Assembly (NCBI GenBank): GCA_046052625.1
Contig: JBJOMA010000294.1
Location: 1 to 33,226, forward strand
Length of the DNA: 33,226 nt
Direction: 5' to 3'
Source of the DNA: Bacteroidota bacterium
GTDB taxonomy: Bacteria > Bacteroidota > Bacteroidia > AKYH767-A > 2013-40CM-41-45
Position 1 is the stretch's first letter. Each line of letters opens with the position of its first letter. The position numbers and the translations under genes are program-made. The notes under the pieces were generated by a model that saw only the letters and a list, made by a program, of their open reading frames with translations, was not told where the DNA came from and did not search any database. This document shows, piece after piece, positions 4,480 through 33,226 of the stretch.

Positions 4480-7400
4480 TCACTGAACGATGATCCGCTG
4501 AAGGCTGCGAACACCGGCTCCCTCTGCAGTCAGGAAATACAAACCGGGGGCGACTCCTTCCAGATCGATCATCAGAGAAGTTTCCGTTTGCAGAAGCTGC
4601 ACGGTTTCGCCGTACACCTGACGACCGGAAAGGTCTGTGACCATCAAGCGCATTTCAGAATGACGCTGTCCGCGGATGGCAACTGTGAAGCGACCCGGAT
4701 TCGGATTCGGGAACACAGTGATGCCCGGATGAACGGCCATCGGTCCGTCGACCGGCAACGAGAAGTTGACCGTGAACTGGTAGTTGATATTGTCACCGAA
4801 ATCGGGATTGAAGGTCTTCAGGATCGTGCCGGAAGATGCCGAACGAATCCGCAGATATCCGGTCCCTTGATTGGTATTGGCCCAGAAGCTCAAACCGTCA
4901 TCGCCTGAATCGTTCATGTACAACTTGTAACAACCCGCGGTCAGATTCAACGTGTCCCGGTAAATGACACCGCCGACCGTAGGAGCCCGGTTCAACAAAA
5001 CGTTGCCTTGCTCGTCACGGACAGAATAGGTGTTCTGTGTAATGAGGTTATTGGGACGGTATTCGAGGACAATCCTTCCATAATACGTATCAGGAATGAG
5101 AAAGTCGGTGGAAAGCGTATCGTTAGGTGCATACCCGTCGGCGCCTCCATTAGGATTGGAGACGCTGACCTGGAAGCGGTCGATACCGGAACCGATCCAG
5201 GCAGGCGCCGGAAGTACGACTTCTTCGGTCTGAAGAAACGTCAGGCTTCCAGTCCAGTGATAGCTGCTTAAAGTTCCACCTACTCTTCCGTAGGTGATGT
5301 CCAGCGATGTCAATGTATCTGAACCGGAATTGCGGATCACGATGACCGGATCGTCACAGATCGGATTGAAGCGCAGGTACTCGCTCCTTAAAGAAGGCGA
5401 CTTGATGACATGTACCGCCGCATCCGTCTGGAAATTGGGCGGTCCGTAACTGACGAGGGTGTTGTTAACGCGGTAATTGGAGGTGCCGGGATTGGCTATG
5501 AACGGCATCGTGTATTCGGCTGTTACGGTCTGACCGGGTGTCACATACGGCGTGAGCTCCAGCTCGGCGAGGTCGACGTTCTTTCCCGGGCACCAGCCGG
5601 CACGGTCATAGACCCACGTTCCGCCTTGTGGAAAGATCGGATTGGTAGCGCATTCCGTCCACACGCTTCGGGTGAAATCGATGATGCCTGCCAGAGAGAC
5701 CGTATGGTTACGCGCGATGAACTCTCCTTCCTGTCCGTGACCGCTGATCGAGGAGCGGATCTTATACATGGAAGAGCCCGGATCCAGGATGATATCGCGC
5801 GGCTCGAAATAAACGTTGTTATAGATCTGACTCCACGACGGTGACACCCATCCGCCGTTCGGCCAGATCTGCGTCACTGAACGCACGGTACGCGGCGGAA
5901 TCCCTTCGTAGAAAATGAACTTGATATCGTTCTCCTCGCTGTTACGACCGGCACCGTTCATGGACAGGTACTTTCCGCCTTTTAGGACAGGAGCGAAATC
6001 GGTGACGTCGAAATCCCAGTACTTGCCGTTCAATCCGTCCAGGTCAAGATTTATCCCATAGGGTGTAATGAAATCGATGAGCTCGAAATTCATCGGCCGC
6101 TTCTGGTAGTAATTCAATGTCTGCTGTACGAGGGAATCCGTGGCTGCAATCAAGGCTGAGTCGCTAACGGTACCGTCGTAAGCATAGGTGTAGGAATATC
6201 CGCCGGCCGGCCAGACCAGCAACGTATCGGTCGTCACCAGCGTATTGGCATTCACGTCGTATTCGATGACCCGTAGCGGTGAGCGCAAAAGGGAATCAGG
6301 AACATGATAAGTCTGGACGGTGGAGGTATATACGCCCTGAAGGAACGTCACATCCGGGCGATAAGTGGTTGCAGTGAAATCACTGAAAAGATCTTTTCCC
6401 TTTCGGGAGCGCCAGACCGGGTTGATGATATCCGCGGTTGCTGCGGAAGCACCCCGGTCGAAGGTGACAGTGCCGACGCCTTCATTGAAAGAATAGTATT
6501 GGACCAGCCGCGCATAATCGGGATGAGCAGGTGTGACGGTGCGGTACAAGAGCGCTGCAATCGCGGTCGAATCGAGCTCCTTGTTCCAAATTGAAAACTC
6601 ATCGATGCGGCCACGGTATTGCATGTTATTCGGTCCTGCACCGATGGTGTAGTTTTTCAGATTGACCGGGATGGTCTTGCCGGTACCGGATTGGATCACA
6701 TGACCGTCCATCCATATTTTCATCTCGCCGGTCGTCGTGTTCTTGGTGAACGTCCAATACGTCCAGCGGCCTTCGAAGTCGGCAGGAACCACCGATACGG
6801 AAATGCGATCGTAAGTACCACCGGCACCTCCGCAGTCCCAGTAGACCTTCGAATCGGACCAGGGAAGGTGAACGTTCAATTGCCGACCGTTGCCGTTGTC
6901 CGTGCCGTAGGCGATGCTGGTATTCGATGGTAGCAGGCTCGTATCCCCATATGCCCAGAAACCGACGGTGACCTGGTCGGAGATTTGCGAAAGCCCGTTG
7001 GTGTCCGGCAGTAGGACGGAGTTGGTGACTTCCAGATAACCGTTTGCTGAATCCGTGATCAGTCCGGCAACGAACCCGGCATCGTGCCCCTCGGTGGAAT
7101 CATTCGAAGAGCCGGAAGGAAGGGTATAGCTCAAATCCAGTAGGAGATTGGAGGTGCCGTTCCAGGTGAACGGCTGATGGAAGTTGAACTGCTTGGTTCC
7201 TGTCGTCGGAACCGGGGTGTCAAGGAAATAGACTTCCTGGAATCCGTCGGTCGAAGGTAATTCGGGAGAAAGTACACTGTCTGTGGCAGGACGCAGGCGG
7301 ATACGCAGATCCTGCAGGTCGTTGGATGCCGTTAATACTTCCAGCCGCAGACCGGTGATATCACCGGCGACCAAGCCGGAAGCGGTTAGTTCTGAAGCAG

Positions 7401-27523: not shown

Positions 27524-30037
27524 TCACTTGATATGAACAATCCTGCTTTTATACACGTTACGGCCGGACTTCAAAATGAGTAAATAGATTCCATCATCAA
27601 GCGATTCGCAGCTTAGCTGGACAGATTCCTTCCCTGCATCATCACAACACATGATGCCGTTTGTCGGCGATCCCGATCGTTCACAAGATGTGCTGCTACT
27701 TGTCGAGATATTCATCCTCTTTCCTTCCAGAGAGTAGACTTCCACTTCGACCGCCGATTGTTCTTTCAAGATATATGATACCGTGAGGGTATTCCTGAAA
27801 GGGTTCGGGGAAAGTGAGACATCATAAAAAACGATTTGTGATTCCGGATTGGTTGCGTCCAAAGGCCTTAACACAGGTCCGTTCTCACACGCCTTGGTGA
27901 CCAAATTTGATGAGGCGCTGTAGGTATAACCGGCATTTGTCACATTCGTCACTTCATAACACCACTGGACAGCCGGATTCTTTATAGAAGCTGAATTCAG
28001 GATCACTTGGCCGTTCGCATCTGTTGTTCCTGAAACTGTCCCTGTAGTGGGGCCCGTGAACAGTCCGGTAACAATTGCACCTGAAACAGCCGCACCGACA
28101 CCGTTTACTATCCTCACCGTTGCAACGCCCTTATACTTTCCTGCTCCGGCAGCGGCACGTGTAACAGTCAGACTGTTAACATACATTACATTACCTCCTG
28201 TTCCTCCTGACTGTGTGATGGCAGAAGCTACGTTAGACGGTGTCGAATTTCCACCTGTATTGAACGCGATGACACGGTAGTAATACGTCGTAGAAGCGCT
28301 GAGGCCGTTGTCCAAGTAGGTTACCGCATTTAGGCCCACAGAAGCCAGAGGGCTGAAGTGCATTCCATCGGCGGACCGCTCAATATTGAATCCGGTTTCA
28401 TTGGATGAGTTGTCAGTCCACGAAAGGCTGATCGAAGTGCTCGAAGCAGCTGTGGCCGTAAGACTTGTCGGAGCCGGAAGGGTGGCGCCGCCAGCGAGTA
28501 CATAGTAATCGGAATAAGGAGTCGCCAGGTCGCCATCAGCCGGGAACGAAGGAGGACCCTGACCCCCGATTACATTCATCCAACCCATGGCGCCTTGGTC
28601 TTCGTGGTCAAGAAGATGGCAATGCATCATGCCCATGCCTGAATAAGGAGTTGATGTGGCGACATTGAGATCGAAACGAGCGGTGCCTGTTGCTGTCAAC
28701 ACATCATAATATTCACCGGCCTCATAACTGCCGGAAGAAGTCTGTACCTGCAGATGAAATGTATGCAGATGGAAAGGATGGTTCGAGTTTCCGGATAAGT
28801 TCCATTCCTGGATCTGGTTCGCCTGCAACGTGAAATTAGGCGTACTCGGGTTGAATTTGTTCCCATTGATTGTGCGTGCGCCCATGGAAACCGATTCAAG
28901 ATGTACCGGGCCAACTCCTCGGAGGTCTCTTAGATAATTCGGACGTATTGCCGACCATGTAGAGACGCCGTCGGACGCAAAAGGATTGGGTCCCGTATTC
29001 GGTGTGCCCGACGCTATGATACCGGCCGCTACGCCCCCGTCAACACTGAAGGTTGAATTACCGGTTATACGTATGGCCACATCCACGCGGGAAGCTCCTG
29101 TAATAACGATGCTGTTGGATGTAAGGGCCTTGGGTGCGACCGTACGCCAGACCCCATCGCGAGCCAGAAGCATTACCTGGCAACCGGCACCCCAAGAAAG
29201 CGTGACAGAGCCGTCGCTGCGATTGGCTGCCAGGATGCGCCAATGCTGCCAGGTGTTGGCGGGCATGCAGATGTTTCCGTTCACAATACCGTTCACTGTC
29301 CAGGTAGGATTCAATGATCCGCTCAGCAGTACATCACCGCCGGTCCCCGCTGCTGCTTTATCCAGATACCCTACCACCAATTGCTTTTCGGGCATGGCAG
29401 CCACATTCGCCGGAATACCGTCATTGGCATCATCGACTATCAGCATCCCGAAAAGTCCTCCAGATATCTGTAGAAAACTGGACCCGTGGTGATGGGCGTG
29501 GTACCAGAATGTGCCTCCCATATGATTGGCAGGGATGTCCCAAACGAAATCCCCGCCGCGACCTCCTTCAAAAGCACGCATGGTATTGTCACCCGGTGTT
29601 TCACCTGAAATGTGCAATCCGTGTGTGTGAATGTTTGTGGCATTGGGGTCTTTGTAAACGTTCAGGCTTGTATTCAGTGCGGCGAAAGGCAGTGTGTTTT
29701 GCAGTTGAAGCACATACTTGTTGCCGGGTACCACTTTGATGGTCGGTCCCGGAATGCTGTAACTCCCACCCTGCTGACGATATGCTCTCGTGGTGAGTGT
29801 CTGACCGTTGTTCAGTGTGAACGTAGCCTGACCGACTTCCAGTACGCCACTGTAGTAGGCTACGGGATTGTTCGCCGTGACGGGATGATAGGTCCAGGTG
29901 AACTGTTGCGGATCTTGCACCGCATTAGGCCCGGTACATTGGCTATAAGCGTCCTCACAAAAAAGCGCCATTGCAATTAACACGGGAAATATTCTCCAAA
30001 CGGAGATGACAAGGATGGCACTTTGTTTTTTATTCAT
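27524..30037 (-). CDS. Three-domain multicopper oxidase (laccase-like) fused to FN3, a beta-sandwich domain and a T9SS C-terminal domain
   Basis: - Signal peptide.
- Four copper-ligand motifs: HTHGLH, WYHAHHH, HPFHLHTFH, HCHLLDHEDQGAM.
- FN3: SISLSWTDNSSNETGFNIERS...YYYRVIAFN.
- CTD: LSPNPFRNTLTVSY...DGIYLLIL. Confidence 0.9.
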   Translation of the reverse strand: MNKKQSAILVISVWRIFPVLIAMALFCEDAYSQCTGPNAVQDPQQFTWTYHPVTANNPVAYYSGVLEVGQATFTLNNGQTLTTRAYRQQGGSYSIPGPTIKVVPGNKYVLQLQNTLPFAALNTSLNVYKDPNATNIHTHGLHISGETPGDNTMRAFEGGRGGDFVWDIPANHMGGTFWYHAHHHGSSFLQISGGLFGMLIVDDANDGIPANVAAMPEKQLVVGYLDKAAAGTGGDVLLSGSLNPTWTVNGIVNGNICMPANTWQHWRILAANRSDGSVTLSWGAGCQVMLLARDGVWRTVAPKALTSNSIVITGASRVDVAIRITGNSTFSVDGGVAAGIIASGTPNTGPNPFASDGVSTWSAIRPNYLRDLRGVGPVHLESVSMGARTINGNKFNPSTPNFTLQANQIQEWNLSGNSNHPFHLHTFHLQVQTSSGSYEAGEYYDVLTATGTARFDLNVATSTPYSGMGMMHCHLLDHEDQGAMGWMNVIGGQGPPSFPADGDLATPYSDYYVLAGGATLPAPTSLTATAASSTSISLSWTDNSSNETGFNIERSADGMHFSPLASVGLNAVTYLDNGLSASTTYYYRVIAFNTGGNSTPSNVASAITQSGGTGGNVMYVNSLTVTRAAAGAGKYKGVATVRIVNGVGAAVSGAIVTGLFTGPTTGTVSGTTDANGQVILNSASIKNPAVQWCYEVTNVTNAGYTYSASSNLVTKACENGPVLRPLDATNPESQIVFYDVSLSPNPFRNTLTVSYILKEQSAVEVEVYSLEGKRMNISTSSSTSCERSGSPTNGIMCCDDAGKESVQLSCESLDDGIYLLILKSGRNVYKSRIVHIK

Positions 30038-31125
30038 TCAACTATCAATTTAGGTTCGTAAATCATCTGTCGAAACCCGGTCATGCTAAAGACATAGTAA
30101 CATGCTTTTCGAGTATTCCGGAGATCCGTACCGGGGTTAACTTTCATACGGATTGGGAATCTCGAAAAATCGGACATGGCTACTGGCCTGGCCGTACTTT
30201 TTACAAGACTTAATATAAACTGAACAGACTTAAAAGGCAATTGTTTGTATGTTTTTAGCCGATTTTAGTGGCATAATCAGTGGAAAATGGGAACATACCA
30301 CTAGACAGGCAACTCCGTCAGGCGGAAGAAAATACCGCATAGTGGAAAGTCAAAATTTCAACGAGTCGCTAATGCAATATTCTTTCAGGGCTGTTATTGA
30401 CTGCTGTGGGGGATTTGCAATTCTTCCTCTTTTCCCTTGCCGGCTGCTTCGGACCGCCGCATAAAGACTGGTGTATTTTAGTGTGAAAGATACAGCACAT
30501 TTCGTGAATTGATTTTTCCGCGACTTCTTTTGAAATTTCTGAAGTTCATCTCTTAGTCAATTCCGTTAAGGCTTCCACTTCTTACTCAATAAAACTAATA
30601 AGGAAATTTTAAAACATTCATTTTTGTTCCATTTTTGCCGGCGCTTTATACAACGGGCACGTCACTTTAACCTGATCGGTATTTGAAACGTGTGTATCCC
30701 GTATCGTTGTCTTTATGCTATGGCGACCTGACAACTTTGGGATACAATGTAATTCCGTTACGCATTACGTCTGCCGGCAAATGTTTTGAAAAATAATGTA
30801 TCAAGCCATGGAATGTAAACCGCTTCCGTATGAAGCGACACCGTACAGTTCGCTGATAAAATTAATGTACGCACTGTAGGATCTTTTTTCCAAAACAATG
30901 GAAAAACCTTTGGCCAAAAGAAAAACGAACGTAGTATTTGTGGAAATTACAAAGGAGCCCTTGCGAGCCTCCTTTGAATGCCTGTCGACACTAAACTTCT
31001 TACGAAGCACACAGCATCATAGAGACGCTGATCTGCAACTTTCGTGTAGGCACTGTCATGTGTAGTGCTGCAAGAATGCAATTCTGACATTCTAATATCA
31101 ATTGATTTCTTTAGGTGCAGGTAGA

Positions 31126-31218
31126 ATGTAACCCCTTCCTAAATCTCATTGTTTATACTGGTTCATTAAACTTAAGGGTTTTATTTTTTAGCAGTCCGAG
31201 ATTTAGGAGGGGTTACAT
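31126..31218. repeat. Long imperfect palindrome (about 21-bp arms, about 50-nt spacer)
   Basis: Left arm ATGTAACCCCTTCCTAAATCTC (31126..31147). Right arm GAGATTTAGGAGGGGTTACAT (31198..31218). The arms are reverse complements apart from one extra T in the left arm. Confidence 0.8.
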
Positions 31219-31219
31219 C

Positions 31220-31396
31220 TGGCAAAAGATTCATTACATCCATCAAAATCCCGTGAAGGCGAAATTTGTTCACCGGGAGGAGGATTATCTGTTCAGCTCA
31301 GCCAGGAATTATCACGGCTTACCATCGGTGATAGACGTGGAATGTATCACTCCACCTGTGATTACAGTGGGAAGTCCTGGCTTTTATAAGGGCTGA
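31220..31396 (+). pseudogene. C-terminal remnant of a REP-associated / IS200-like Y1 tyrosine transposase (RAYT family)
   Basis: WQKIHYIHQNPVKAKFVHREEDYLFSSARNYHG matches the conserved C-terminal YIHxNPVxAGxV...YxYSSA block of Bacteroidota Y1 transposase-like proteins. The catalytic N-terminal part (HUH and Tyr region) is absent. The track ORF (from GTG 31115) reads through the palindrome with no family resemblance. Confidence 0.6.
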
Positions 31397-31404
31397 ATGG
31401 GGTG

Positions 31405-31437
31405 CCGCTATGCGGTATTTAAAATCCCTCATAGCGG
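31405..31437. repeat. Stem-loop (8-bp stem)
   Basis: CCGCTATG (31405..31412) pairs with CATAGCGG (31430..31437). Confidence 0.6.
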
Positions 31438-31445
31438 TAAAATCA

Positions 31446-31472
31446 CTATTCAGGATTAAAAATCCTGAATAG
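31446..31472. repeat. Stem-loop (12-bp perfect stem, 3-nt loop)
   Basis: CTATTCAGGATT (31446..31457) pairs with AATCCTGAATAG (31461..31472). Confidence 0.7.
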
Positions 31473-31477
31473 CAAAA

Positions 31478-31500
31478 AAGGAGGCCTTTAGAGCCTCCTT
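31478..31500 (-). terminator. Rho-independent terminator of atpG (end of the atp operon segment)
   Basis: AAGGAGGC (31478..31485) pairs with GCCTCCTT (31493..31500). On the minus strand it is followed by TTTTTTGC. The plus strand also has an A/T-run arrangement. Confidence 0.75.
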
Positions 31501-31523
31501 CTAAAAAAAATATACGGTATCAA

Positions 31524-32411
31524 TTATCCGTTCAATGCCTCCGCACCGGCAACGATCTCCAGGATCTCTCCGGTGATGGCCGCCTGACGAGCCTTGTTGT
31601 ACGACAAGCGAAGATCGCGCAGCAGTACACCGGCATTGTCCGTTGCCTTGTTCATCGCCGTCATCCGAGCACCGTGCTCGGAAGCATTTGAATCGAGCAG
31701 CGCCTTGTATAACTGGACCTTGATGGATTTCGGGATGAGCTCCAACACGAGCTCTTCTTTGGCCGGCTCGAATACGTAATCGTTCGCAGTCTTCTTATCA
31801 CCTGCAGCAGCGGCCGGCGGAACGATCGGAAGCATCTGCTCCACCATCACGTTCTGTACCGCAGCATTCTTGAACTGGTTGTACACCAACACGACTTTAT
31901 CATACGCTCCACCCTTGAATTCGGCCATGATTTTCTCGGCAATGGCGGCGGCATTGTCGAACGTGAGCAGGGCATACACGTCGTTATGCTGACCTGCAAA
32001 CACATTGCCCTTTGCACGGGAGAAGAAGTCGGAAGCCTTCTTGCCGATGCACAACACCTTGACATTTCCGTTGGCAGCCTGCGATGCGTAATCCTCGCGC
32101 AGCAGACGGTTGACCGTACGGATGACGTTGGCATTGAATGCGCCGCACAAGCCACGGTTGGAGTTGATGGCGACCAACAGGACCTTCTGCACAGGACGAA
32201 CCTTGGCGAAGTCGCCGCCGGTGCTGCTGTCCAACGTACCGGAGATGTTCTCCATGATCTCACGGAGCTTGCCGGCATACGGACGCATCATCATGATCGC
32301 ATCCTGCGCACGGCGCAGCTTCGCTGCACTCACCATCTTCATCGCCTTGGTAATCTGTTGCGTGGAGATGACCGAGGAGATGCGGTTACGGACTTCTTTT
32401 AGATTTGCCAT
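31524..32411 (-). CDS. atpG: F1Fo ATP synthase gamma subunit
   Basis: MANLKEVRNRISSVISTQQITKAMKMVSAAKLRRAQ N-terminus and C-terminal LSYNKARQAAITGEILEIVAGAEAL, both diagnostic of AtpG. Confidence 0.95.
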   Translation of the reverse strand: MANLKEVRNRISSVISTQQITKAMKMVSAAKLRRAQDAIMMMRPYAGKLREIMENISGTLDSSTGGDFAKVRPVQKVLLVAINSNRGLCGAFNANVIRTVNRLLREDYASQAANGNVKVLCIGKKASDFFSRAKGNVFAGQHNDVYALLTFDNAAAIAEKIMAEFKGGAYDKVVLVYNQFKNAAVQNVMVEQMLPIVPPAAAAGDKKTANDYVFEPAKEELVLELIPKSIKVQLYKALLDSNASEHGARMTAMNKATDNAGVLLRDLRLSYNKARQAAITGEILEIVAGAEALNG

Positions 32412-32415
32412 GGCG

Positions 32416-32494
32416 TTTTAATTAAGAATGCAGATTTCAGAATGTAGAATGGAATGCGAAGTATTCTGCATTCTTCACTTTGCATTCTGCATTA
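32416..32494. repeat. Heptamer-phased palindromic repeat, copy L (between atpG start and the four-helix-bundle gene stop)
   Basis: - Starts TTTTAATTAAGAATGCAGA.
- Forward 7-mers: AGAATGC AGATTTC AGAATGT AGAATGG.
- Inverted 7-mers: TGCATTC ... TGCATTC TGCATTA, in the same 7-bp phase.
- The right arm overlaps the last 6 codons of the 127-aa ORF. Confidence 0.85.
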
Positions 32495-32858
32495 AATTAC
32501 CTGCTGATTGATTATTGTTTCGCTTTGCACTGTTGATGATCGACACCAGTAATCGTATCAATTCATCCAACCCCTCTATCATTCCCTGCGGAATTTTCTG
32601 GACTTTCCGGTCAATCAGCATAAACCAGTAGTCCGTCTCCTCCGCTTCCTTCAACGCGATATTCATTTTATGAATGAAATCGGCTTTGCTCTGTGCCCGC
32701 TGTGCCTCCCTGATGTTGGCACCGATACTCGTGCCGCTTCTGCAAACCTGGCCGGCAAGAACAAACTGCCTTGTTTCATTCAACTCCCTCACTACGTCCA
32801 GCACTTGCAATGCAAAACTGAACGACTTCTCCAGCACCGGGTTCTTTTCCTGCTTCAC
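32475..32858 (-). CDS. Four-helix-bundle protein (23S rRNA intervening-sequence protein / Avd-like family)
   Basis: QVCRSGTSIGANIREAQRAQSKADFIHKMNIALKEAEETDYWFMLI is the signature core of this family. GTG start at 32858 (an internal GTG eight codons later is also possible). Confidence 0.85.
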   Translation of the reverse strand: MKQEKNPVLEKSFSFALQVLDVVRELNETRQFVLAGQVCRSGTSIGANIREAQRAQSKADFIHKMNIALKEAEETDYWFMLIDRKVQKIPQGMIEGLDELIRLLVSIINSAKRNNNQSAGNLMQNAK

Positions 32859-32927
32859 TGGTCTTCTGTTTTTGAAGACCCTAACTTCTATCTATCATCC
32901 GGGATTCAGAACCCCTTAAATGCCGGA

Positions 32928-33021
32928 TTTTTAATTAAGAATTCAGAATGAAGAATGAAGAATTAATTAGTTAACATTCTGCATTCTGCACTCTGCATTC
33001 TACATTCTGCATTCCACATTA
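32928..33021. repeat. Heptamer-phased palindromic repeat, copy R (between the four-helix-bundle gene start and the atpA stop)
   Basis: - Starts TTTTTAATTAAGAATTCAGA.
- Forward 7-mers: AGAATTC AGAATGA AGAATGA AGAATTA.
- Centre: ATTAGTT.
- Inverted 7-mers: AACATTC TGCATTC TGCACTC TGCATTC TACATTC TGCATTC CACATTA.
- The 7-bp phase is unbroken, and the last unit overlaps the atpA stop codon. Confidence 0.85.
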
Positions 33022-33226
33022 CGCTTTATATTTCCCACTCAGCTCCTTCGCCACTTTCTCCAGCACCGAGGTCACGCTGTCGTCGATAACACCTTTGCGT
33101 AACGTATCCAACGTGGATTTGTGCTGCGCGTCCAACAGCGCCAGGTATTCGCCTTCGAATTCCCTTACGCGGTTGACCGGAACATCACGCAGCAAATTGC
33201 GCGTACCTAAGTAGATGATAGCGATT
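33019..33226 (-). CDS. atpA: F1Fo ATP synthase alpha subunit, C-terminal 68 codons (partial, runs off the right edge)
   Basis: Own translation of the minus strand: IAIIYLGTRNLLRDVPVNRVREFEGEYLALLDAQHKSTLDTLRKGVIDDSVTSVLEKVAKELSGKYKA, stop TAA at 33021..33019. This matches the AtpA C-terminal helical domain. It is absent from the ORF track because no start codon lies in the window. Confidence 0.85.
   Translation of the reverse strand, partial: IAIIYLGTRNLLRDVPVNRVREFEGEYLALLDAQHKSTLDTLRKGVIDDSVTSVLEKVAKELSGKYKA

Follow-up and report, generated by a model that had tools for sequence, protein, structure and literature searches.

Our analysis of a 33,226-nucleotide stretch of a Bacteroidota genome (GenBank assembly GCA_046052625.1, contig JBJOMA010000294.1; hereafter the window) concerns a gene encoding a four-helix-bundle (4HB) protein that sits between atpA and atpG, two genes of the ATP synthase operon. 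We suggest that this insert is an operon-embedded cassette resembling the intervening sequences (IVSs) of ribosomal RNA, made of a promoterless 4HB gene and its own complementary arrays of short-period repeats, and transcribed together with the atp operon, an account to which we give about an even chance. Several observations bear on it. The anatomy of the insert recurs in many related loci, its flanks stay complementary while the repeat unit turns over, it is oriented with the operon, its protein is under purifying selection, and near relatives show a pattern of gain, loss and replacement at the same junction.

The gap between atpA and atpG spans 607 bp on the minus strand, from the atpA stop codon (TAA, 33,019-33,021) to the atpG ATG (from 32,411), as an earlier note made from the sequence alone had reported. 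In transcript order the atpA stop is followed by a first sense array (S1), a loop, a complementary array (AS1), two small hairpins, the 4HB open reading frame (ORF), a second sense array (S2), a loop, a second complementary array (AS2), about 6 nt and the atpG ATG, and all of these features lie on the minus strand. S1, the outer 5' array (32,976-33,015), begins 4 nt past the atpA stop and consists of about 5.7 heptamers of the GAATGCA type; it pairs with AS1 in the local fold and with AS2 in the full-length fold. AS1 (32,933-32,963) is made of ATTCTTC and ATTCTGA units and closes hairpin 1. The leader of the 4HB gene contains a small hairpin, ATCCGG...CCGGAT (32,897-32,928), that is kept in the related locus L001 and is paired in the fold of the full region, and a second one, GGGTCTTC...GAAGACC (32,860-32,881), that ends 1 nt before the GTG start. 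The 4HB gene itself (32,475-32,858; locus tag RL021_1989) encodes 127 aa with a pI of 9.2. The inner sense array S2 (TAATGCAGAATGCAAAGTGAAGAATGCAGAAT, 32,463-32,494) codes for the last ~7 residues and the stop of this ORF, and hairpin 2 overlaps its last ~7 codons; the C-terminus of the protein (LMQNAK) is array-encoded. AS2, the outer 3' complementary array (32,417-32,450), ends ~6 nt ahead of the atpG ATG.

The earlier note had described both flanks as beginning with nearly the same 18-19 nt and as two copies of one palindromic repeat. The shared sequence is indeed an exact 19-mer (TTTTAATTAAGAATKCAGA), with exactly two copies in the window (32,416-32,434 and 32,929-32,947, plus strand) and none in shuffled sequences, but in transcript orientation the copies are the 3' ends of the hairpins, not their beginnings. 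One overlaps AS1 and runs 4 nt past it, and the other lies in AS2 and runs 1 nt past it. Rather than copies of a palindrome, the flanks consist of degenerate heptamers in arrays, with GAATGCA as the unit of the 5' arm and TGCATTC as that of the 3' arm, in a derived layout that is restricted to a few lineages. They do fold as hairpins, as the note had anticipated, with local energies of -29.6 kcal/mol (z -4.25) and -21.8 kcal/mol (z -3.65). Twelve-mers resembling GAATGCAGAATG (up to 2 mismatches) occur 18 times in the window against 3.45 expected, 14 of them within 32,426-33,014, and the only strict period-7 array of the 33 kb is at 32,932-33,020. Scans for the 19-mer, the 12-mer and period 7 found no second repeat locus in the 33-kb contig, and the further copies for which the note had proposed to search did not turn up within it. 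An origin of the arrays by chance or low complexity was ruled out by the shuffles, the expected counts, the period and the comparison with non-cognate flanks given below.

The minimum free energy (MFE) fold of the whole 631-nt region reaches -204 kcal/mol (z -7.15). In this fold S1 pairs with AS2, and AS1 with S2, giving one long composite stem that closes off the 4HB cistron; the fold of a relative, L006, has the same outer stem. No sigma-70-like or TAnnTTTG motif was found on the gene strand within the cassette, although such scans are weak evidence, and no terminator-like site was called inside it. The array hairpins are A/T-rich and followed by AATTAAAA, and neither was called as an intrinsic terminator. 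A canonical intrinsic-terminator-like hairpin, with a GC-rich stem and a T run, follows atpG instead (31,476-31,502, minus strand, 21 nt past the stop), and equivalents follow atpG in L001, L002 and L006. Therefore, this organism does not use the array hairpins as terminators, and the transcription unit ends with atpG, so that atpD and atpC must lie elsewhere. Rfam has no family covering the arrays, be it in an E-value scan of 30,000-33,226 or in a gathering-threshold scan of 20 related loci, where only tRNAs matched. There was no rRNA match in the same region or in the same 20 loci, and the cassette sits between the coding sequences of atpA (3' end, partial at the contig end, 33,019-33,226, minus strand; PF00306 at 1e-08, TIGR00962; 91% identical to the atpA of L001) and atpG (31,524-32,411, minus strand; F1 gamma subunit, 295 aa; PF00231 at 2.8e-98, TIGR01146; the last gene of the operon).

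Paired arrays of this kind are a general feature of the loci related to the window. Our comparative set comprised about 180 related loci, and array statistics were computed on 94 4HB loci (90 non-redundant). A profile built from 26 homologues retrieved 80 loci in species-representative genomes, mostly from Flavobacteriales, Crocinitomicaceae, Fluviicola and other Bacteroidota, with a few contigs labelled Anaerolineales, Clostridia, Treponema or Verrucomicrobia. When the 130-nt flanks were matched against themselves, the best lag was 7 in 69 of 94 upstream and 72 of 94 downstream flanks, and 8 in another 14 and 16, respectively. When the 5' flank was compared with the reverse complement of the 3' flank, at least one 9-mer was common to both in 76 of the 90 loci (mean 5.2), against 24% of non-cognate flank pairs (mean 0.86). 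Of the period-7 arrays, 51 fell in the 70 kb that lie no more than 200 nt from a 4HB gene and 20 in the remaining 493 kb, a density about 18-fold higher near these genes. The same scan gave no arrays at periods 5, 6, 9 (outside the near zone) or 10, and no array was found inside an ORF across the 4HB loci scanned.

At the level of the repeat unit, the comparison was limited to the 57 loci with strong arrays on both sides. All 57 had the same period on both sides, and in 38 the 5' and 3' units were reverse complements of each other with at most 1 mismatch. These loci contain 34 distinct units, whose sequence varies by lineage. The subfamily that we call type 1 has GAATGCA, GAGTTAT, CACAATG and 8-mers as units, and its conserved protein motifs are invariant. 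Judging from these comparisons, the complementarity of the flanks is kept while the repeat unit changes. The arrays have a mean length of 29.5 nt, about 4 units, and a marked polarity, being purine-rich on the 5' side in 50 of 57 loci and on the 3' side in only 12. In the dominant architecture a single arm stands on each side of the ORF, 5' and 3', as in L006, where sense units occur only in the 5' flank and antisense units only in the 3' flank; the double-hairpin layout is confined to the subclade of the window and the L090/L092 group. The arrays at atp junctions start a median of 4.5 nt past the atpA stop and end a median of 6 nt before the atpG ATG.

The large double cassettes of L092 (2,700-3,705), L090 and L031 occupy atpA-atpG gaps of ~1.5 kb. 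Cassettes of this type have the sense array and a GC-rich spacer (GCCGCGGAGAGG...) as a direct duplication flanking the 4HB gene, with two copies of the antisense array ahead of atpG. In L092 the atpA reading frame seems to continue into the first array. In L157 (3,350-3,470) the longest hsdS ORF starts within the 3' array, which would translate as HSPLSIP repeats, an example of how gene calls can acquire spurious terminal extensions from arrays.

The protein is a clear member of the S23p/IVS family, in line with the four-helix-bundle gene on the operon strand that had been recognised from the translation. Its residues 5-109 match PF05635 at 80.9 bits (cutoff 33.8; E 9e-23), it scores 94.3 bits against TIGR02436 (cutoff 24; E 5e-27), and it matches a solved Bacteroides structure, PDB 2RLD, at E 4.4e-27 over 110 residues. 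The columns that are invariant in the profile alignment, G..S.GAN..E.QR and I.LKEA.ET..W, are present in it. The 2RLD entry has five chains, and pentamers were reported for the S23p protein of Xanthomonas (PMC4990558) and for Avd (10.1101/2023.10.23.563531). Across ten pairs of 4HB genes dN/dS ranges from 0.04 to 0.13, with 0.12 for the window gene and that of L001. Such ratios indicate that the protein is under strong purifying selection; it is therefore made and constrained. Three 4HB genes at atp junctions (L071, L102 and L151) have a frameshift or an in-frame stop while their arrays are kept, which suggests loss by decay, comparable to that of the Coxiella S23p ORF.

PF05635 includes Avd-like proteins (PMC10053308), and the gene might be taken for the Avd accessory gene of a diversity-generating retroelement (DGR), either as a component or as a remnant. 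The 4HB protein does resemble Avd in being small and basic and in its homologous four-helix-bundle fold (10.1101/2023.10.23.563531; PMC10053308). Avd forms a basic barrel of five subunits and binds stem-loops of RNA (10.1101/2023.10.23.563531). The RNA that it acts on contains a duplex in which sequences upstream of the template pair with downstream ones, comparable to the paired arrays described here. Type-2 relatives, a second subfamily described below, even match the bAvd family PF22296 at 38.9 bits, just under the cutoff of 40. The window protein, however, matches PF05635 alone at E <= 0.01, without a hit to PF22296. Unlike Avd, it belongs to a housekeeping operon with atpA and atpG as neighbours, and no reverse transcriptase is present among the ten largest ORFs of the window or at the atp loci; template and variable repeats are likewise not in evidence, but were not separately searched. 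We regard a DGR origin as effectively refuted here. PADLOC returned no match, which speaks against a DGR and also led us to reject a role as a defence system.

In a metagenome scan based on atpG, 55 of the 70 related junctions with a measurable gap were 0-76 nt long, confirming that atpA and atpG are normally adjacent; 10 had gaps of 109-288 nt without an ORF, and only 5 carried a 4HB gene. Several ORF-less junctions are array hairpins, with AGTGAAT and ATTACTA units in L008 and L009 and AATTGCG in L022. Close 4HB homologues (94%, 76% and 73% identity) are all found at the atpA-atpG junction and have the same heptamer type in another arrangement, and the profile search placed the 4HB gene between atpA and atpG in at least 44 of 79 species-level genome loci. 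Cultured carriers of this gene order among its hits are Aequorivita sinensis, Flagellimonas pacifica, Tenacibaculum sp. A30, Dokdonia sinensis and Kordia periserrulae.

The family is also found in very different operons. It lies between the genes for homogentisate dioxygenase and 4-hydroxyphenylpyruvate dioxygenase (hmgA and hppD) in many Flavobacteriaceae, there with 8-nt units, between tgt and a gene for an lptF/G-like permease, between hsdM and hsdS, between the genes for carbamoylputrescine amidase and agmatine deiminase, and between atpB and atpE. A published table for Flavobacterium columnare places a four-helix-bundle gene between gmk and nadD (PMC5524665). In L161 (2,876-3,351), on a contig labelled Clostridia, a cassette with CACAATG arrays directly follows a tRNA-Arg(CCG) gene, and this stable-RNA host transcript is an intermediate between the rRNA and the mRNA cases. 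None of the best 120 matches of a second homology search was borne on rRNA; they were operon copies of Bacteroidota only. At all ~60 atp junctions the 4HB gene reads in the same direction as the genes on either side, and so it does in 32 of the 36 loci elsewhere for which both neighbours were called.

These data allow us to weigh an explanation by ordinary operon features, namely that the flanks are generic intercistronic stems, stabilisers or attenuators tuning the 3:1 ratio of alpha to gamma, and the 4HB gene a lineage-specific accessory gene of ATP synthase without any cassette character. Short junctions usually hold a stable hairpin too, as do empty junctions of relatives (-20.5 kcal/mol in L014, -20.2 in L012 and -27.1 in L022), and both the frequency of the arrangement among the profile-retrieved genomes and the purifying selection on the protein would suit such a gene. 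Yet the same family follows the same flank rule in unrelated operons (hmgA-hppD, tgt-lptF/G, hsdM-hsdS, nuoK-nuoL, atpB-atpE) and after a tRNA, few of the atpG-sampled relatives carry it, a family member with 22% identity can take the same site, and some copies are decaying. We find this explanation very unlikely.

The arrangement has nonetheless been inherited with the operon for a long time. Across atp loci, 4HB and atpG identities are positively correlated (Spearman 0.57 over 1,653 pairs), and the nearest 4HB neighbour is in the same context class in 91 of 96 cases; the order atpA, 4HB, atpG is therefore old and mostly vertical. The window cassette does not seem to have been recently mobile, because its closest 4HB relatives are at the same junction in dozens of Bacteroidota species. 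Among near relatives, though, the junction changes state. In one clade with atpG genes 84-92% identical, the L020 junction is clean and empty (30 nt), L019 and L026 hold a type-1 gene with CACAATG arrays, and L021 and L023 hold a type-2 gene, 22% identical to type 1, with TTGGCAG arrays. The presence/absence comparison that the earlier note had called for thus reveals empty sites, ORF-less hairpins and two unrelated cassette types at one junction. Such states agree with the mobile or selfish cassette that the note had envisaged, but the window copy is vertical and diverges in step with atpG, and recent mobility is only partly supported here.

Type-2 genes reveal more of this behaviour. They are 72-80% identical at three junctions, atpA-atpG (L176), atpH-atpA (L178 and L013) and nuoK-nuoL (L168), and are accompanied by TTGGCAG-type arrays at all three. 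Therefore, the arrays belong to the cassette and not to the host junction. In these comparisons the ORF and its arrays act as one unit, passed on mostly by vertical descent but at times lost, replaced or moved to other operon junctions, and its loss leaves ORF-less hairpins or clean empty sites.

Some of these loci have further particularities. L178 has, 2 kb upstream of its cassette and in the same operon, an ORF-less hairpin of type-2 TTGCAG/TTGCCAACT units at atpA-atpG (4,537-4,610), which may be a non-autonomous derivative or a landing pad, and the atpA-atpG gap of L013 retains a similar remnant of the 3' arm (GCAAACTGCCAACT). The atp operon of L176 contains two different 4HB cassettes (431-799 and 2,501-2,875). 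One, between atpH and atpA, has ATGATTT arrays and a gene that matches PF05635 only; the other, between atpA and atpG, has a type-2 gene and TTGGCAG arrays. The type-2 cassette of L168 (2,402-2,924), with TTGGCA arrays, lies within the NADH dehydrogenase operon, and a protein identical to its 4HB protein occurs on 23 contigs. Arrays of the same unit recur within a few kb in L092, L031, L121 and L178.

Could the arrays act on DNA instead of RNA? They might be recombination substrates, with the ORF and its flanking arrays recombining into resident array hairpins or moving by means of a recombinase or HUH transposase acting in trans, so that the cassette would be likened to miniature inverted-repeat transposable elements, to repetitive extragenic palindromes (REPs) or to the attC cassettes of integrons, and the resident hairpins would be landing pads or non-autonomous ORF-less copies. 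This possibility fits the way in which arrays follow the type of ORF and not the host junction, the presence of type 1, type 2 or nothing at one junction in near relatives, the ORF-less hairpin of the same unit in L178, and the solo array hairpins of L008 and L009. It also fits the double layout of the window and L092, in which a direct duplication of the entire hairpin module flanks the ORF, and the equal stability of sense and antisense duplexes reported below. A fragment of a REP-associated tyrosine transposase (RAYT) lies 1.1 kb from the window cassette, and a tyrosine recombinase gene adjoins atpG in L001. However, no transposase or integrase is consistently linked to the cassette; there is none among the ten largest ORFs of the window, and the neighbours differ among relatives. 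Comparison of the filled junctions of L019 and L021 with the empty one of L020 shows no visible target-site duplication, and sliding-window identity over five sequences gave no signal of a recombination tract in atpA or atpG beside type-1 or type-2 cassettes. A DNA element requires neither the nearly constant orientation with the operon nor the purine/pyrimidine polarity of the arrays, and it sits uneasily with 4HB and atpG identities that rise together and with the largely shared context. We consider a purely DNA-level cassette possible, but rather unlikely.

The short period of the arrays suggests yet another function, that of a binding platform. Units of 7-8 nt would be read one per subunit, in single strand or duplex, by the pentameric 4HB protein or by an OB-fold heptamer reader such as a cold-shock protein or S1, and binding would determine how strongly the downstream gene or the 4HB gene itself is translated, which would make the whole an autoregulatory ribonucleoprotein. 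The model accounts for periodicity, which a plain stem does not. Arrays of about four units can be set beside the homopentamers of the family (the five chains of 2RLD; PMC4990558; 10.1101/2023.10.23.563531), the short distance between the 3' array and the start codon recalls the TAACTGA heptamer repeats (PMC4679880), and type-2 proteins keep their unit across different junctions. But type-1 units vary widely while the protein motifs are invariant, which argues against sequence-specific reading, and the trait that is conserved, two-sided complementarity, is not needed by a single-strand platform. A platform of this kind thus seems unlikely to us.

In the account that we favour, an IVS-like cassette within the operon, the arrays would pair in the transcript, either as two local hairpins or as the long imperfect stem (S1 with AS2 and AS1 with S2) that the MFE fold predicts. 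The long stem would close off the 4HB cistron and bring the atpA stop and the atpG start back into juxtaposition, and it would be a duplex of the type that RNase III cleaves in the IVSs of 23S rRNA. The operon would then tolerate the insert, as we infer, by structural looping-out or by excision. After cleavage, the atpA message would end in a protective 3' stem and the atpG message would begin with an A/U-rich leader, with a possible effect on the alpha:gamma stoichiometry. By analogy with its homologue Avd and the stem-loops that Avd binds, the 4HB protein would most likely bind the array RNA of its own cassette. We think that the stem would neutralise the insert at the RNA level because complementarity is kept through unit turnover, because the arrays closely adjoin the stop codon on one side and the next start codon on the other, and because the cassette is co-oriented with the operon and lacks signals of its own.

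The analogy with rRNA IVSs, already drawn in the earlier note, holds in form, through the S23p family, the long closing stem and the complementary flanks, but not in location, as the cassette is not in rRNA. The IVS in the 23S rRNA of Coxiella measures 428 nt and contains an S23p ORF, with a terminal stem of 28 bp that closes it; RNase III cuts it out, and after horizontal acquisition it was maintained vertically (PMC4990558). Like the IVSs of Coxiella burnetii and Leptospira, the cassettes encode PF05635 proteins, and they are of comparable size (the 428 nt of Coxiella against junction gaps of 452-671 nt). Their complementary borders form an extended enclosing stem, as seen in the MFE fold, in the 9-mers shared by 76 of 90 loci and in 38 of 57 loci at the unit level. 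They would also be part of the host transcript, they exist with and without an ORF, and they are sporadic among relatives, with vertical maintenance after acquisition. Unlike IVSs, they reside at junctions of protein-coding operons and not in an rRNA helix. Their stems are tandem units of 7-8 nt. Whereas the S23p ORF of Coxiella is decaying and apparently untranslated, the ORF here is under strong purifying selection. Excision by RNase III is an established feature of rRNA IVSs and a putative one of the atp cassette.

Several points weigh against this account. The duplexes formed by the flanks are equally stable in the sense and antisense strands (means of -45.2 and -45.4 kcal/mol), and the G-U asymmetry test shows the same balance (42 loci for sense vs 47 for antisense; 599 vs 605 G-U pairs), which leaves room for a DNA-level role of the arrays. 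For this metagenome-assembled genome, co-transcription, stem formation and cleavage are predictions from the DNA. Folding during transcription would favour the two local hairpins of the window over the long-range stem, and the RNase III model gives no reason for stems made of 7-8-nt repeats. An AT-rich TTGACA-N17-TAATTT-like segment lies between the 5' array and the ORF in L019 (~2,490-2,560), L026, L021 and L023; it is common to type-1 and type-2 cassettes of one clade, and some cassettes may thus carry an internal promoter of their own. Finally, a domesticated function would account for the long vertical residence and strong selection no less well than a tolerated selfish element would.

Other known repeats and RNA structures resemble the cassette in part. 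TAACTGA heptamer direct repeats precede start codons in Beggiatoaceae, Cyanobacteria and some Bacteroidetes; the study describing them cites binding of CspB, one protein per heptamer, and notes other heptamer repeats in intergenic regions of Gramella and Aequorivita (PMC4679880). These repeats and our arrays are both tandem, 7 nt long, present in 2-6 or more copies, intergenic, predominantly of one orientation and only a few nt away from the start that follows. The published repeats nevertheless have a single unit, no paired reverse-complement array and no link to 4HB genes (PMC4679880). Here the unit is lineage-specific and is not TAACTGA, and what defines the arrays is complementarity across the enclosed ORF, so that the likeness is one of form only.

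The window cassette also shares some traits with REPs and bacterial interspersed mosaic elements (BIMEs). These are imperfect palindromes between co-transcribed genes, as in malEFG of E. coli, and they can protect the upstream mRNA and set differential expression; REPs are mobilised by RAYTs, occur as dispersed copies of one ~35-nt consensus per genome and contain no ORF. The cassette has intercistronic palindromes and a RAYT fragment 1.1 kb away, but unlike REPs and BIMEs it has no other copy in 33 kb, its stems are tandem arrays and an ORF lies in the loop. The ATPC RNA motif is located between the genes for the a and c subunits of ATP synthase. Found in cyanobacterial atp operons (listed in PMC1950547), it is likewise a conserved RNA structure at an ATP synthase intercistronic junction, but in another phylum and at another junction, and it is a short RNA without ORF or arrays; it did not appear among Rfam matches here.

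As for the surroundings of the cassette, the RAYT-like sequence is a 93-aa ORF (31,115-31,396, plus strand) that resembles the C-terminus of these transposases (NF047646, E 3e-5, below the cutoff). It sits in a 1.5-kb stretch without long ORFs, between atpG and a multicopper oxidase gene, and may be a decayed RAYT, without an established link to the arrays. The region 169-30,037 of the window encodes many large secreted proteins with the C-terminal sorting domains of type IX secretion (Por_Secre_tail), including an M36 peptidase and CUB/PKD, DUF4397 and PNGase-like proteins, as well as a multicopper oxidase with an fn3 domain and an HrpB helicase.

The gene family, the rRNA IVSs and isolated heptamer direct repeats were already known. 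In the literature, which we covered incompletely so that a prior description is possible, and in Rfam, we found no account of paired reverse-complement arrays bracketing 4HB genes, of their systematic residence between cistrons, or of an allelic series of filled, ORF-less, empty and replaced junctions. We tentatively extend our proposal to a more general one, which we think unlikely as a whole. 4HB genes would be the coding core of an unrecognised class of elements living within self-made array stems, at operon junctions (atp, nuo, hmgA-hppD, tgt-lptFG, hsdMS) and in rRNA. The pentamer would read its own arrays of ~4-5 units, the stem would hide the insert by looping-out or RNase III excision, and ORF-less hairpins would be non-autonomous derivatives and landing pads. 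If this were true, the 'operon intervening sequence' would be the general category, and rRNA IVSs a special case within it.

The pairing of a 5' array with its reverse complement on the 3' side provides a rule that can be used to annotate 4HB cassettes, and it explains the spurious repeat-encoded N- or C-terminal extensions of neighbouring gene calls. The function of S23p/IVS proteins and the origin of rRNA IVSs are questions that have stood since the early 1990s. They become testable because the same family, with the same hairpin-bounded anatomy and under strong selection, is found in mRNA operons of culturable Bacteroidota, where natural empty, ORF-less and filled alleles can serve as controls. 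Overall, our results point to an unrecognised post-transcriptional layer in energy-metabolism operons whose subunits are needed in unequal amounts.

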